This document shows positions 1 through 5,941 of a stretch of 6,896 nt of DNA, one piece after another. The notes below the pieces were generated by a model. That model saw only the letters and a program-made list of their open reading frames with translations, was not told where the DNA came from and searched no databases. The stretch is from IMG/VR virus record IMGVR_UViG_3300007747_000052. One strand, written 5' to 3'. The translations under genes and the position numbers were made by a program. Position 1 is the first letter of the stretch, and every line of letters begins with the position of its first letter. This DNA comes from a virus (lineage: Duplodnaviria; Heunggongvirae; Uroviricota; Caudoviricetes).

Positions 1-217
1 TCCACAGTGAGCGGGAAACCAGCCAGGCATTGATATCCATCCCCATCCGCAGAAAAGCAATCTGTCGTTCAGCCTCCGGCAGTTCTCCCTCTTCGGCATC
101 AAACTTTGCCGTTCGCTGCTGAACAAACGCCAGATATTCAATTCTCTGCAGCCCGGACAGCTCACTGAGCACCACGGACTGCTTTTCATAATTAAACGTG
201 CCCTGTTTCAGAAACAT
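1..217 (-). CDS. Tail assembly chaperone, lambda gpG-like; 5' part only, the 3' end lies beyond window position 1
   Basis: Minus-strand frame from ATG at 217..215 (a second ATG lies at 220..218) stays open to the window edge and translates MFLKQGTFNYEKQSVVLSELSGLQRIEYLAFVQQRTAKFDAEEGELPEAERQIAFLRMGMDINAWLVSRSLW. The MFLK start and TLSELSxLQRIExLA motif resemble the lambda G N-terminus as I recall it. GGTGGAG lies upstream of the ATG. It sits directly downstream of the gpV-like gene, as in lambda. Not in the ORF track because no stop is present in the window. Confidence 0.7.
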   Translation of the reverse strand, partial: MFLKQGTFNYEKQSVVLSELSGLQRIEYLAFVQQRTAKFDAEEGELPEAERQIAFLRMGMDINAWLVSRSLW

Positions 218-231
218 CATGTTCTCCACCT

Positions 232-257
232 GCAAAAAAGCCCCGGATAACCGGGGC
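232..257 (-). terminator. Putative rho-independent terminator downstream of the major tail gene
   Basis: Minus-strand reads GCCCCGG-TTAT-CCGGGGC (7 bp GC-rich stem, plus 240..257) followed directly by TTTTTT (plus A-run 234..239). It lies about 20 nt after the gpV-like stop at 278..280. Orientation fits the minus strand only. Confidence 0.6.
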
Positions 258-277
258 AAATGATGAGTAGCGTCCTG

Positions 278-923
278 TTAACCTGCGGCGCTGACAGCCA
301 CCGCAGCCACTGCCACAAAATCGCCGTCAGAAGTCATGCCCACAATGCTGACACTGCCCTGCTTCACGCCTTTCACCGTGGCCACAAGCCCGTTCAGGGT
401 CACCGTGGCAGTCCGTGGATCTGTCGAATGCACACTGATCGCTTTGTCACTGGCTCCGTCAGGTTTTACTGTAAAGGTCAGCGTGGTGGTTGCTCCCACT
501 TTTACACTGGCAGATGCCGGTGCCACCGTCAGCCCGGTAACGCTCACTGTTTCAGTGCCTTCCTCTGCCAGATACGGACGCCCCACACCGCTGATTTTCA
601 CGGTGCGGGTCATCACGTCTTTTGAGGCAATGGTTTTACCCAGTGAGCTCAGCCAGCCACGGAAAACATCAACAGTGCCGTTGGGATATTTGAACGGATT
701 TCTGCCCCTGGGTTGTCGTTTTCCAGTCTGCATCTTCATCATCGAGATAAGTGTCATCTTCTGCATCAGCGGTCATTTCGCCAGGTTGCAGATCCTTCAC
801 CATCGCAAGACGCAGCCAGTCAGTGTCCGATAAAGGGTTCGCAAACGCATCGCCCTTGCCGGTGTACATCCAGAACGTCGTTCCCGCACCTTTCGTTTTT
901 GCCAGTGGATTTGGTGTGGTCAT
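278..923 (-). pseudogene. Major tail protein, lambda gpV-like, with Ig-like (Big_2-type) C-terminal domain; reading frame is broken near 690..700
   Basis: AGGAGG then 5 nt then ATG at 923..921, immediately after the gpU-like stop (937..935). The N-terminal frame gives [76 protein letters not shown], then runs into a stop at 669..671. The homologous continuation [40 protein letters not shown]... plus an Ig-like tail is in a different frame (ORF 278..766). Both parts resemble lambda V as I remember it ([30 protein letters not shown]). Confidence 0.75.
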
Positions 924-934
924 TGCCACCTCCT

Positions 935-1336
935 TTAATTCGTGTACGTGATCTGGTACGTGATTTCCGCCATCGCCCAGGTGGCCATCTCATTATCACG
1001 TTGATAGTTAAAACCGAGAGGGATCAGGGTGTCGATGAGTCCGGAAAGTGCCGGTATATCATTCAGAGCCGGGAAAATGGTGCTCTCCATCCACATATCC
1101 AGCTCTGAATCCGGTGCCTGTGCCCGGATGAAGACAGCAATATGCAGAACAGCCTGCCAGTCATCTTCATCCGTCATTTTTCCGGTGTACTGAGCATCAC
1201 TCAGCCACACCGCCACGGCAGGCAGTTCCTGCGCATCAATAAATGCCGGAAGCCCGTCAAAAAACGTGGCGCTGTCTCCACACTGTTCCCGAAGGCGTGC
1301 CAGTACGGCCTGGCGGATTTGTGTATGTCGGTTCAT
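935..1336 (-). CDS. Tail terminator protein, lambda gpU-like
   Basis: 133-aa product from ATG 1336..1334 ([15 protein letters not shown]...[31 protein letters not shown]...[42 protein letters not shown]...ITYQITYTN). It is colinear with lambda U as recalled (ATFFDG, PAVAV, PDSELD.WMES, DIPALS, TY.ITY). The ATG overlaps the gpZ-like stop as ATGA. The ORF track starts 4 codons earlier at 1348, which I consider less likely. Confidence 0.85.
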
Positions 1337-1876
1337 CGGGTCAGCCATAACCTCAGTTGTTGTTTCAGTGCATACCCCAGCTGTTTCGGCATTTCCGCAG
1401 CAATGATGCGGTCGCGGGCATCTTCAAATGCCTGTGTCAGCGGTCCGGACAGCGGGATTTTCACTTTTTTCTTGGCCTGCCCTGATGGTCATGCCCTGTT
1501 GCAAAACGCGCTTCAGGAAGACGCCTCAGAACATGCCAGCGGCCATTCGCCAGTTGCTGAACAAATGCCCCCCGGAAAAAGTATTTTCCCACTCTCAGTC
1601 CTTCACCAGCACGCCGCCGTGTTGTGTTCAGTTTGATGGCGGGCAGATTGCCCCGGTTAACGCGGATCCTGGCCGTCATTTTTCCTGACGGACTGGCTTT
1701 AAACACCCGGACACGCTGACGTACCAGTTTCACGCAACGGTATTCCCGGCAACCTGCCGGGTGGCAACCGAGACCGCTTTCTGTGCCACACGGTTTATCG
1801 CCCATGCGCTGGCCTGTGGCACCATACGGGTATCAAGGCTGTTCAGATTGCGGATGGCATTCTCAAGCCCCTTCAT
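1333..1876 (-). pseudogene. Tail completion / minor tail protein, lambda gpZ-like; reading frame is interrupted twice (or is recoded)
   Basis: RBS AGAGGTG then ATG at 1876..1874. Frame A gives MKGLENAIRNLNSLDTRMVPQASAWAINRVAQKAVSVATRQVAGNTVA then TGA at 1732..1730. The homologous continuation VKLVRQRVRVFKASPSGKMTARIRVNRGNLPAIKLN...RGAFVQQLANGRWHVLRRL... is in frame B (ORF 1461..1805) and stops at 1463..1461. The C-terminal part [45 protein letters not shown] is in frame C, ending at TGA 1335..1333. All three segments match consecutive parts of lambda Z as recalled (IKVNRG.LP.IKL, GAF.QQL.NGRWHV, VKIP...PL..AF, LGYAL..QL). Confidence 0.65.
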
Positions 1877-1887
1877 CCCACACCTCT

Positions 1888-2163
1888 TTACTCAATAAAG
1901 ATCATTGGCTTACCGTTAAAGCGTTCATGCCGTGTGACCGTCCAATGTTGTCCGTCATAAACAACGCGATCCCCGCGCCGTGGGCGGTATCCCGAAGAAA
2001 ACACCACCAGAGAGACCGCAGGTCCGGACAGAGCATTCAGCTCTGCCAGTGTTTCTCCCGGGATCACAGTCATATCGACATCATTAATCGAGGCTGTCTT
2101 TCCCATCTTTCTGACCGTGATCGCATCCATACGCGCTGCCAGCCGGGAAAAGGGATCAGACAT
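1888..2163 (-). CDS. Head-tail joining protein, lambda gpFII-like
   Basis: 91-aa ORF MSDPFSRLAARMDAITVRKMGKTASI...RRGDRVVYDGQHWTVTRHERFNGKPMIFIE. It resembles lambda FII as recalled (AA..R.D..I....G.SA.I; RRGD...W.V) and sits in the FII position between the capsid genes and Z. The start ATG 2163..2161 overlaps the upstream gene's TGA (2158..2156) by 8 nt (ATGTCTGA). Confidence 0.7.
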   Translation of the reverse strand: MSDPFSRLAARMDAITVRKMGKTASINDVDMTVIPGETLAELNALSGPAVSLVVFSSGYRPRRGDRVVYDGQHWTVTRHERFNGKPMIFIE

Positions 2164-2479
2164 TGAGTTTTACCGGCACTTCTTCTGCACTGGTTCCGGC
2201 ATCTGCCCAGACAACCCCGACCAGCGGATCAGAGCCGCTGTTAGTCAGCTGAACTTTTCCGGACTTCAGATAAACCTTCTTACCCGTTTTCATGTCATCC
2301 GTTTTCAGCTTAGGCAGCATAAACACACCTTCGGTCAGGCCGTCGCCTGTTTCACCCTGTGGAATATCGGTCAGTGCCACCGCAAAAACATCACCCACCT
2401 GCACCAGATCTCCGCTGCTGATGGCTGCACTGGCAACAATCGCCACCGTTTTTCCTTCTTCTACAAAATTCTTTGCCAT
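2156..2479 (-). CDS. Small head-module protein, possibly a DUF2190-type capsid accessory or decoration-like protein; function uncertain
   Basis: 107-aa product from ATG 2479..2477 (MAKNFVEEGKTVAIVASAAISSGDLVQVGDVFAVALTDIPQGETGDGLTEGVFMLPKLKTDDMKTGKKVYL...VKLNV), preceded by GGAGA at good spacing. It lies between the capsid gene and the FII-like gene. The family assignment is from memory of the MAKN...TEGVF.LPK pattern and is tentative. The ORF-track start at 2524 would overlap the upstream terminator and lacks an RBS. Confidence 0.6.
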   Translation of the reverse strand: MAKNFVEEGKTVAIVASAAISSGDLVQVGDVFAVALTDIPQGETGDGLTEGVFMLPKLKTDDMKTGKKVYLKSGKVQLTNSGSDPLVGVVWADAGTSAEEVPVKLNV

Positions 2480-2520
2480 AACTGTCTCCGCACAGCCCCG
2501 TTCAGGGGCTGATTTCAGGT

Positions 2521-2545
2521 ACAAAAAAAGCCCTTACGGGCCATC
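2521..2545 (-). terminator. Putative weak rho-independent terminator or attenuator downstream of the major capsid gene
   Basis: Minus strand reads G-GCCC-GTAA-GGGC (4 GC pairs plus a G.U) followed by TTTTTTT (plus A-run 2523..2529), about 20 nt after the capsid ORF stop (2566..2568) and before the next gene's RBS. The stem is short, hence modest confidence. Confidence 0.45.
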
Positions 2546-2565
2546 AGAGTTGTTGTCTGCGACGT

Positions 2566-4419
2566 TTACGCCGTACATTTCACCAGACCGCGGTGATCAA
2601 CTGGCGCGACACCGGCGTCAATACGCACTTTCGTTGTCACGCCATCCACACTGAAGCCCTCCATCTGATCAATATATGGCGTATCCACACCGTTGAGATA
2701 AGCCACTTCAATCGTATCGGAGCCTTTTGACGCAGCCAGGTAGAAGGTGGTCTGGCTGTTATCATCAAGACGAGGCTCTGCAATAACGGTCGCAAAATCT
2801 TTCACCGGGTTAATAATACCGGCGTTAATGTCAGCCCCCTTGACACTTGAGGAGCGAATGACCTGGTTAGCAACAGACTCCATCGCCGTCGGTACCAGTA
2901 CGAACGCAGGACGAATATTCAGATGACGCTCCCCCTCTTTCTGAACGCGCATCAACTGGCGGGCTTTATCCAGCGATGCCACGTCCATTGCAGCGCTCTC
3001 CAGTACGTTTGCATGTTTCGCTTTATCGAACAGACTTACATTATCTGTGGAGATTTTCGGGTTAGACGTCAGAATGGCATAAACCAGATCGGCAATAGTG
3101 GATTTCGCCGCACGGCCCAGTTTCATCGGGACATCGGTCAGCATATTCAAATCATCATTGATAATGGCCTGACGGGTGATACTGAACAGCTCGCCATAGG
3201 TCGCCAGTGCAATAGTGGCCTGTTTATCTCCGGTGGTGACGTATTTATATTCCGCCCCTTCACGCACCTGACGCAGAGCACTGAAGCCCCCCATACCCAC
3301 ACGATGGGCAATTTTAAAATCAGACAACTGACCTTTCCGCGTCCACTGTTCATAGGTTTCAGGGGCATCTTCCCAGCCCTGCAGAATGGCTTTGTTCGCA
3401 ACATCCAGCAGAATATTACCGAAGTCAGACGTACTGTGTGTGAACGCCGCACCGACCATCTGCATCGGGTTATAACTGGAAACCCCAATACCCCGTTCAG
3501 TCAGTGACATACGGGCATATTCACGCAGAGTCATCCCGTTGTAGACATTATCACGTTCGGTTTTTTCAAATCCGGCACGCGCCATCAGCGCCTGGCGGAT
3601 CCCGTCCCCCACAAAATTACCGTTACCGGCATAAATATGAGCCGGNNNNNNNNNNNNNCCGCCAAACATGGCAAACAGATCATTAATACCGTTTACACGC
3701 GCTTTTTGCTCTGCCAGTACCTGCGCACGGATACTGTTTTCATCCACCACTGGTGCTGCTGCCTGCACTGGCGTCCGGGGTGCTGCTGGTTCATCATCCG
3801 GTACGCGTGGAGCACTGTTGCGTGGCGGAGTAATCATGTTTCGAATGGATTCCGGCATCTTTTTAAATTCCTCTGTACGTTTTGACTGAATACATGCCAT
3901 TGCCTTAACGGCTGGCGTTACCTGATCAGCAAATCCATGAGCCAGACATTCGGCTCCGGACATCCAGGTCTCATCCGCCAGCATGGCAGCAATTTCATCG
4001 GTGGTTTTCCCGGTTTTCTGTGCATAAGCGGGTAACAGAACCGCCTCAACCTTATCGAGCAGGTCGGCATAGGTGCGCATGTCCTCCGCATCACCGCCCG
4101 TAAAGCCAAATGGTTTATGAATCATCATGAAGGTGTTTTCCGGCATAATGACCGGGTTTCCCACCATCGCAATGACCGACGCCATTGACGCCGCCACACC
4201 GTCGACATAAACGGTAATGGACGCACCATGTGTTTTCAGCGCATTAAAAATGGCGATGCCTTCAAAGACATCGCCACCCGGTGAATTGATATGGAGATTA
4301 ATGTGGGTGATATCGCCCAGTGCATTCAGATCACTGATAAACTGCTTCGCTGTAACCCCCCAGAAACCAATCTCGTCATAAATATAAATATCCGCGTCAC
4401 TCTGGTGACCAGCCTGCAT
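2566..4419 (-). CDS. Prohead protease (ClpP family) fused in frame to a scaffold-like linker and a major capsid protein domain
   Basis: 617-codon reading frame from ATG 4419..4417, 13 nt after the portal stop. N-terminal ~190 aa: IYIYDEIGFWGV...HINSPGGDVFEGIAIFNALK...VDGVAASMASVIAMVG...MMIHKPFGFTGG, i.e. ClpP-like Ser and His motifs. Then a Pro/Ala-rich linker (PPRNSAPRVPDDEPAAPRTPVQAAAPVV). The C-terminal ~360 aa (NGMTLREYARMSLTERGIGVSS...GADINAGIINPVKDFATVIAEPRLD...) looks to me like an HK97-type capsid protein, but that call is pattern recognition only. The frame across the N gap at 3646..3658 is assumed, not observed. The ORF-track extension to 4680 overlaps the portal gene and has no protease similarity. 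Confidence 0.75.
   Translation of the reverse strand: MQAGHQSDADIYIYDEIGFWGVTAKQFISDLNALGDITHINLHINSPGGDVFEGIAIFNALKTHGASITVYVDGVAASMASVIAMVGNPVIMPENTFMMIHKPFGFTGGDAEDMRTYADLLDKVEAVLLPAYAQKTGKTTDEIAAMLADETWMSGAECLAHGFADQVTPAVKAMACIQSKRTEEFKKMPESIRNMITPPRNSAPRVPDDEPAAPRTPVQAAAPVVDENSIRAQVLAEQKARVNGINDLFAMFGXXXXXPAHIYAGNGNFVGDGIRQALMARAGFEKTERDNVYNGMTLREYARMSLTERGIGVSSYNPMQMVGAAFTHSTSDFGNILLDVANKAILQGWEDAPETYEQWTRKGQLSDFKIAHRVGMGGFSALRQVREGAEYKYVTTGDKQATIALATYGELFSITRQAIINDDLNMLTDVPMKLGRAAKSTIADLVYAILTSNPKISTDNVSLFDKAKHANVLESAAMDVASLDKARQLMRVQKEGERHLNIRPAFVLVPTAMESVANQVIRSSSVKGADINAGIINPVKDFATVIAEPRLDDNSQTTFYLAASKGSDTIEVAYLNGVDTPYIDQMEGFSVDGVTTKVRIDAGVAPVDHRGLVKCTA
3646..3658. other. Assembly gap (13 N) inside the protease-capsid ORF
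   Basis: Run of 13 n characters in the sequence. True length and content are unknown, and frame continuity across it cannot be verified. Confidence 0.99.
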
Positions 4420-4432
4420 CCTGAACCAGGAA

Positions 4433-5941
4433 TTATTCTTCGGACTGGTCGTCGGTGTGCTGCGGCTCCTGTCGTTTCGTTGCGGCACTGCTGCCTCCTT
4501 TATCACTGGCCGGATCGGTATCAAATACCAGATCCAGCTTGCGGTTTTCATCAATTTCGGCCTTGCGCCGACGTTTGACATCATCCGGATTACGACCACC
4601 AGCACGTACCCAGTCTGATTCTGTCGCCGCTCCACCACGAATCTGGATTTTCCAGGCCTCAGCCTCCTTAACAGGGTCAATCCACGGCATCACTGGTCCG
4701 GAATACACCGCGGTATACAGTGAAGAACGGTCAAGATCACGGGGTAGCCTGATAACACCGGATGCCACAGCCTGTTTCAGCCATGCACGATACATCGGGC
4801 GGGTGACGGCACCAATAAACCAGTCCTGCAGGATCAGGTAGCCATCAGTAGACTCAACCAGTTCCTGACGCTGGGCGCTGTAAGTGCCGTTATAGTTGCG
4901 TGCCGTACTGGAAAAACTCAGACGACTGCCCGCCGCCACGGCACGCAACTGACCATTACGAAAAGTTTCAAGATTAGGATTGGGGCGATCCGACTTCACC
5001 ATTCCAATTTCTTCGCCGGGTTTCAGATCGTCGTAAATAATGCCTGGCTGAATGGTAAGCTCGCGTTCCTTATCCTTGCTGCCATTACCATCCGGTTCAT
5101 AGCTCTGCCCGTCGCCTTTCCGGATGTACATCCCCAGAGCAGCGGCGATCCTTGCTGCAGTCAGCTCAGAATCTTCATACTCTTTCAGGGCACTGAGGCG
5201 GATCAGCACACCGGACAACAAAGACGTCCCGCGCATCTGGTGCAGACGGCGAACAAATTTAAGATGCAGCATTCGCTCTGCATCCACTTCTTTGGTTTCC
5301 ATCTGCCGTCCGGATACGGGACGGCTTTTATACACCAGATATTTTTCGGGACGCCCCCAGTCATCAACAAACACGCCCTGATTCAGCCTGTTGCTCTCAT
5401 CACTGGTCATGGGAATAAAGTCTGGCTCGAGCGCCTCCAGCCAGAAATGAACATCGGCAGAAGGCGTCAGGCTGTTTATGCGCCCGGAAACCATCTGGGC
5501 AAACACCTCACCATCGCGCAGCCAGGTACGCAGCATCAGACGTTCCAGCATCGGACGGGTAAACTGCCCGGTGACTTCCGGGCTGACAGACCATTCACTC
5601 CATCGGGTGCGAATCTCCGCTGCCAGATCACGGGCAATGGCCCCATTGCGTAATACCGGATGTGGCTCGACAATAATCCCGTTTTTCCCCACCACCCGTT
5701 CTTCCAGCTTGTCAAATACACCAATAACCAGATCGTGGTTGTTATCAAGGTAACGGGCCTGCTCACGTAACGACACGGCCCCGTACTGGCTTAACTGGTC
5801 GGCAGTTCGGTTTTCCCGCCGGGCTTTGTGTGTCCGCGTCGTTTTTACGGCCTCATAAGCCTGGATCACCGCACGGGAACGCAGCCTTGCCGCTTTCCAT
5901 CCTGGTGAAAAAACGCCAATCACATCATCAATAATTGCCAT
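4433..5941 (-). CDS. Portal protein, lambda gpB-like
   Basis: 502-aa product from ATG 5941..5939 (MAIIDDVIGVFSPGWKAARLRSRA...), stop TAA at 4435..4433. It sits in the portal position between the W-like gene and the protease/capsid gene, with size and overall composition similar to lambda B. The ATG overlaps the gpW-like TGA as ATGA; GAGG lies 6 nt upstream. The ORF-track start at 6013 would overlap the W-like gene by 70 nt. Confidence 0.85.
   Translation of the reverse strand: MAIIDDVIGVFSPGWKAARLRSRAVIQAYEAVKTTRTHKARRENRTADQLSQYGAVSLREQARYLDNNHDLVIGVFDKLEERVVGKNGIIVEPHPVLRNGAIARDLAAEIRTRWSEWSVSPEVTGQFTRPMLERLMLRTWLRDGEVFAQMVSGRINSLTPSADVHFWLEALEPDFIPMTSDESNRLNQGVFVDDWGRPEKYLVYKSRPVSGRQMETKEVDAERMLHLKFVRRLHQMRGTSLLSGVLIRLSALKEYEDSELTAARIAAALGMYIRKGDGQSYEPDGNGSKDKERELTIQPGIIYDDLKPGEEIGMVKSDRPNPNLETFRNGQLRAVAAGSRLSFSSTARNYNGTYSAQRQELVESTDGYLILQDWFIGAVTRPMYRAWLKQAVASGVIRLPRDLDRSSLYTAVYSGPVMPWIDPVKEAEAWKIQIRGGAATESDWVRAGGRNPDDVKRRRKAEIDENRKLDLVFDTDPASDKGGSSAATKRQEPQHTDDQSEE

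Follow-up and report, generated by a model that had tools for sequence, protein, structure and literature searches.

A 98-nt gap breaks the reading frame of tail tube gene V in a lambdoid Escherichia coli prophage sequence and most likely arose in assembly

The tail tube protein of phage lambda, gpV, is represented by several structures (PDB 6p3e and 8iyk, with 2k4q for the N domain and 2l04 for the Ig-like C domain), and close relatives of the gene considered here follow its plan throughout: an intact V aligns to gpV end to end (E = 7e-87), has the same two-domain layout (PF16461 followed by PF02368) and lies in the same gene order, Z-U-V-G-T. The intact protein is 247 aa long, its residues 18-152 matching PF16461 and its residues 161-239 Big_2, and in all annotated relatives it is encoded by a single 744-nt ORF. 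The closest described DNA comes from phage Ayreon (MF807953), mEp460, cdtI and the intact prophage of E. coli FDAARGOS_536 (NZ_CP033762; locus L002 below), whose V flanks share 97.5-99.7% nucleotide identity with the 6,896-nt viral record IMGVR_UViG_3300007747_000052, the whole of which we call the window; the FDAARGOS_536 prophage, in which V occupies 4392767-4393510 of NZ_CP033762.1, is identical to the window over 5.1 kb. All four of these relatives possess 98 nt of V, 118 nt that lie under a run of N in the window, and an undeleted gene Z; the window has none of the three. Compared with gpV, its V product has lost residues 78-109 and changes frame, leaving the tube domain incomplete.

All genes of the window lie on the minus strand, in the order terminase large subunit (C-terminus), W-like, portal, ClpP-protease/major-capsid fusion, DUF2190, FII-like, Z, U, V, a terminator and the start of G. 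The window represents the head-tail module of a lambdoid E. coli prophage of the mEp460/Ayreon/cdtI type, and a very common one: of 5,426 complete E. coli genomes, 2,911 contain similar DNA, at up to six places each. The tail terminator gene U is intact at 935..1336(-) and encodes 133 aa, a protein listed in 44,313 blocks of the collection; the intrinsic terminator behind V, at 231..257(-), retains its GCCCCGG-TTAT-CCGGGGC hairpin and T run and is annotated in Ayreon; and beyond V the window has exactly the L002 sequence in which G starts. Placement of V between U and the G/T chaperone genes agrees with the synteny of the annotated relatives (L001-L006). The complete E. coli genome CP035879.1 carries two Z-U-V-G-T copies, at 539026-544427 (L186) and 969554-974955 (L187), with identical U proteins, an example of the repeated copies that mislead short-read assemblers.

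Within this setting V is split between two frames, as an earlier note made from the sequence alone had proposed. Its N-terminal fragment (669..923, minus strand) lies in an ORF spanning 669..929(-) that has an ATG at 923, yields a protein beginning MTTPNPL and ends at the stop 671..669, just where the note had placed the end of this frame. Translation and profile positions 1-60 of PF16461 (Phage_TTP_12) identify 77 native residues (M1-V77), which are followed by seven out-of-frame residues, QISQRHC. The C-terminal part (278..691, minus strand) is read in a different frame, from 694/691 down to 278, where it ends SAAG*; it comprises native K111-G247 plus the stop, and its frame stays open upstream as far as an ATG at 766. 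The note's estimate of about 697 for the start of this continuation was thus off by 3-6 nt. The C-terminal part carries the last third of the tube domain (PF16461 positions 93-135) together with the Ig-like Big_2 domain, which is retained (PF02368, E = 5e-12). The window therefore keeps 77 + 137 = 214 of 247 native residues; the note had given about 214 aa against about 246 aa for lambda V, which indeed has 246. According to Pfam, positions 61-92 of PF16461 match neither part, so that no single frame of the window encodes a complete N-terminal tube domain, while the intact relative spans PF16461 1-135. The 32 absent codons correspond to the conserved core of PF16461, which is present in the lambda gpV structures. 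Taken at face value, V would give a dead-end product of 84 aa, with its C-terminal part out of frame, and a tail tube would be impossible because core positions 61-92 are absent and the rest of the tube domain and the Ig-like domain are out of frame.

The cause of the split is a single window-specific gap of exactly 98 nt, as revealed by alignment to Ayreon (L001) and five intact E. coli prophages (L002-L006). The junction lies at 693..694(-) and reads CCGT|TCAAAT where relatives read CCGT|CGGTG...98 nt...TTTCGTA|TCAAAT; the sequence absent from the window, CGGTGATACT...TTTCGTA, corresponds to positions 7248-7345 of the L002 locus and to nt 231-328 of V. Codons 78-109 are lost entirely, together with the last base of codon 77 and the initial base of codon 110, and the frame shifts because 98 mod 3 is 2. 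These results closely match the earlier proposal of a missing segment of about 30 residues and roughly 100 nt of non-triplet length (about 33 codons by alignment), as distinct from a 1-nt error, and a homopolymer or single-nucleotide sequencing error is excluded by the size of the gap. The alignment to lambda V and close homologs that the note had called for likewise bears it out, since intact V aligns from end to end and the window alone has the gap. The 98 nt are found in each close relative examined, and more than 1,800 E. coli prophage copies, every one of them with the 98 nt, match the flanking sequence at 99.7-99.9% identity, so the gap is no chance effect. No direct repeats and no microhomology occur at the junction. 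Slipped-strand deletion was considered and rejected: direct repeats are absent, and the nearest candidate pair, TCCGT/TTCGT, would give a 97-nt product, which differs from that observed.

Could V instead be a natural short form of about 215 aa, or a recoded one read by programmed frameshifting? Two open frames, and nothing further, speak for this idea, which the alignments refute and which we regard as vanishingly improbable. Every relative has a 247-aa V in one ORF, the 32 missing codons are conserved core seen in the gpV structures, and the junction occurs in no other sequence among the collections searched. A 34-mer across it had 0 matches in viral_contigs (IMG/VR), genome_contigs (GTDB representative genomes) and metagenome_contigs (JGI metagenomes), and an 80-nt junction query against the 5,426 complete E. 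coli genomes returned only two-piece matches spanning 178 nt. The exact broken products (V of 84 aa, V of 86 aa, a 162-aa C-terminal ORF and a 114-aa middle ORF of Z) are likewise absent from the record. Homologs that are naturally near 215 aa and share this junction, which the earlier note counted, in combination with reads showing a single-base error, as evidence against a defect, were found neither among relatives nor in the collections searched.

The V gap has company. A seven-sequence alignment reveals four window-specific missing stretches within 3 kb, of 118, 28, 19 and 98 nt. The 118-nt stretch belongs to the ClpP-protease/major-capsid fusion and is represented by a scaffold gap of 13 N (3646..3658, no strand assigned), whose stated length is wrong and which keeps the capsid-fusion frame by chance. 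The minor tail gene Z (1333..1876, minus strand) is broken by the 28-nt gap at 1733|1732 and the 19-nt gap at 1466|1465. Between these, 267 nt have 0 mismatches to L003-L006 and 73 to L002, and thus represent the other Z allele. Elsewhere the window is of the L002 type: gaps aside, there are 0 mismatches over rc 1-5164, a difference at rc 5432 reflects merely the placement of the 19-nt Z gap, and after the second Z gap the sequence is L002-type again, including the unaltered 772 nt that separate the Z patch from the V gap. Looking for signs of neutral decay (substitutions, IS elements) in the window relative to L002, we found a lone substitution, at rc 6483 within the 1.46 kb that follow the second Z gap, and no insertions. 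Microhomology at all junctions amounts to 0-1 nt; that is, they are blunt.

Some of the gap edges coincide with sites at which prophage alleles differ. Over 182 related loci, only 4% of columns have a minor allele frequency (MAF) of at least 0.1. Under the N gap, the first base is one at which L002 differs from all other loci and the last is a C/A site with MAF 0.17; the V gap opens on a C/T site with MAF 0.26. In L002 these three positions are 4143, 4260 and 7248. Three of six edges (both of the N gap and the left one of the V gap) thus fall on allele-differing sites, and the other three (the right one of the V gap and both of the 28-nt Z gap) lie away from common polymorphic sites. Because both its edges sit on allele-differing sites, the N gap behaves exactly as expected if a contig had broken between two slightly divergent prophage copies residing in one genome. 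At its left edge the V gap fits this pattern too, although the overall fit is incomplete. A simple dropped-bubble model that assumes two copies, one resembling L002 and the other L003, is exact for the N gap and fails for the V right edge and the 28-nt Z gap. Assemblies made elsewhere bear on that Z gap as well: Logan/ENA contigs from unrelated runs (L007-L016) end 0-2 nt from its left edge (GCG/GCGG/GCGGG), which suggests a recurrent branch point of assembly graphs there. A 48-aa Z fragment appears in 69 blocks, a count selected by the design of the look-up, and in all 10 places shown the gene is cut by a contig end.

We posit that the V gap is most likely an artefact of scaffolding or gap closure over a multi-copy prophage. 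In such a scenario, the source would be a scaffolded short-read draft in which this prophage module, often found in several near-identical copies per genome, broke into small contigs; one contig join would have been left as the 13-N gap, and three others (V, 98 nt; Z, 28 and 19 nt) would have been closed or abutted with loss of the intervening bases. We infer that the bases missing from the window are present in the real genome. This reading is favored by the clustering of four missing stretches in 3 kb, one of them an explicit and mis-sized N gap; by the location of the N-gap edges and the first missing base of V on allele-variable sites; by blunt junctions with 0-1 nt of microhomology; by the allele switch in Z, where 267 nt are unlike their flanks; and by the multi-copy nature of the module (up to six places per complete genome, two in CP035879.1). 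Independent short-read assemblies break at the left edge of the 28-nt Z gap, the junction and the broken products are absent from all collections searched, and comparable faults of V exist in public assemblies, including a palindromic chimeric scaffold, all of which argue in the same direction. Gap closers have been reported to insert sequence that differs from the true one (PMC8848313). Several points weigh against an artefact: most assemblers write N at unresolved joins instead of abutting contigs, the V right edge and both 28-nt Z edges lie off common polymorphic sites, natural mosaics with this Z allele exist (L005), so that the allele switch need not be chimeric, and truncated V genes are real in complete genomes (P0005, P0008 and P0031).

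Truncated V products in complete genomes and named records (P0005, P0008, P0012) lend weight to a possible but less likely alternative in which the deletion is real and strain specific, the prophage having been recently inactivated by loss of 98 nt from V and of 28 and 19 nt from Z, with the N gap as the only assembly problem. The sequence shows the gap unambiguously, half of the edges lie off polymorphic sites, and E. coli prophages with damaged morphogenesis genes are common, as is generally known (De Paepe et al. 2014, PMC3945230). This account must, however, accommodate three frame-breaking losses in 1.04 kb of a sequence that differs from an intact prophage by only 0-1 substitutions. In E. 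coli mutation spectra, deletions of at least 19 nt are normally much rarer than point changes, and three such deletions in so short a stretch would therefore be very improbable as independent natural events, a consideration that again favors an artefact. Deletions that arise spontaneously in E. coli usually involve short direct repeats, which the blunt junctions here lack; moreover, the lesions lie near a scaffold gap, and the junction is missing from the 5,426 complete E. coli genomes and the three contig collections. Alternatively, the Z patch and all three blunt deletions might stem from one complex natural rearrangement, such as template switching or aberrant recombination involving two lambdoid prophages of the same cell, whose outcome would be a newly inactivated tail module surrounded by pristine DNA. 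The clustering of the three gaps, the allele switch between the two Z gaps and the pristine state of the remaining sequence are in keeping with such an event, which we nevertheless consider very unlikely: neither microhomology nor any other footprint of template switching is present, the 772 nt separating the V gap from the Z patch are unaltered L002-type DNA, and no second example occurs in the collections searched.

Returning to the assembly artefact as the preferred explanation, the earlier conclusion that V is a defective major tail gene holds in part. A frame-breaking gap is present in the sequence; a true defect in the source strain is less likely. The V gap is one of four missing stretches in 3 kb, one of which is an explicit scaffold gap, the surrounding DNA is almost without substitutions, the junctions are blunt and several edges coincide with inter-allele SNPs, a pattern better explained by an assembly artefact than by three independent natural deletions. 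Judged against intact close relatives, V displays the frame-breaking lesion of a pseudogene, with its 98-nt gap and premature stop, and the region also displays what is expected of an artefact, a mis-sized unresolved assembly gap (13 N standing for 118 nt at 3646..3658). Nothing is novel under either main reading: the gene family is known, the prophage is very common, and the lesion is either a draft fault or an ordinary pseudogenizing deletion. Taken at face value, with Z broken too, the sequence would describe a tail-defective prophage, and if the gap is real, one strain carries a prophage unable to build tails, a case of routine prophage decay. If the gap is an artefact, its significance is that of a warning for annotation, in that draft scaffolds over multi-copy lambdoid prophages can hide losses of tens of bases with no N to mark them. 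Such silent losses look like pseudogenes, and counts of defective prophage genes taken from drafts therefore need checking against reads.

Real as well as technical lesions of V are commonplace. A protein search returned many truncated V products, among them ones of 123 aa (P0005 and P0012) and 102 aa (P0008); P0005, P0008 and P0031 are on megabase contigs (4.86 Mb for P0005), and P0012 is a named record, Shigella flexneri 2850-71. The 123-aa form recurs across sources (P0005, P0010, P0011, P0012). P0012 and L062 (143-270, its run one A fewer) fit loss of 1 nt in the A6 run CAGAAAAAACTG, and P0005 changes frame several codons before that run; these 123-aa products may be real pseudogenes or homopolymer errors. 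On a 1.5-kb draft contig (L184; GCA_026281325.1 JALZSJ010000027.1, 330-345), V has a 14-nt gap with 2-nt microhomology that starts at or next to the same base as the V gap of the window and gives product P0002. In a palindromic chimeric metagenome scaffold (L185; ENA ERZ28585791 scaffold_17553, 400-640), the N-terminus of V is joined to an inverted V, giving P0001.

These truncated products share with the window a V family protein broken inside the tube domain; their lesions are 1-nt shifts, a 14-nt gap and an inversion chimera, and none has the 98-nt junction of the window. A broader parallel is offered by the defective lambdoid prophages of E. coli, reportedly documented for the O157 Sakai prophage pool by Asadulghani and colleagues in 2009. 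Like the window, the Sakai prophages are said to possess morphogenesis genes with frameshifts or deletions; their defects, however, are said to have been verified in finished genomes, whereas the lesion of the window lies in a scaffolded draft, beside a run of N.
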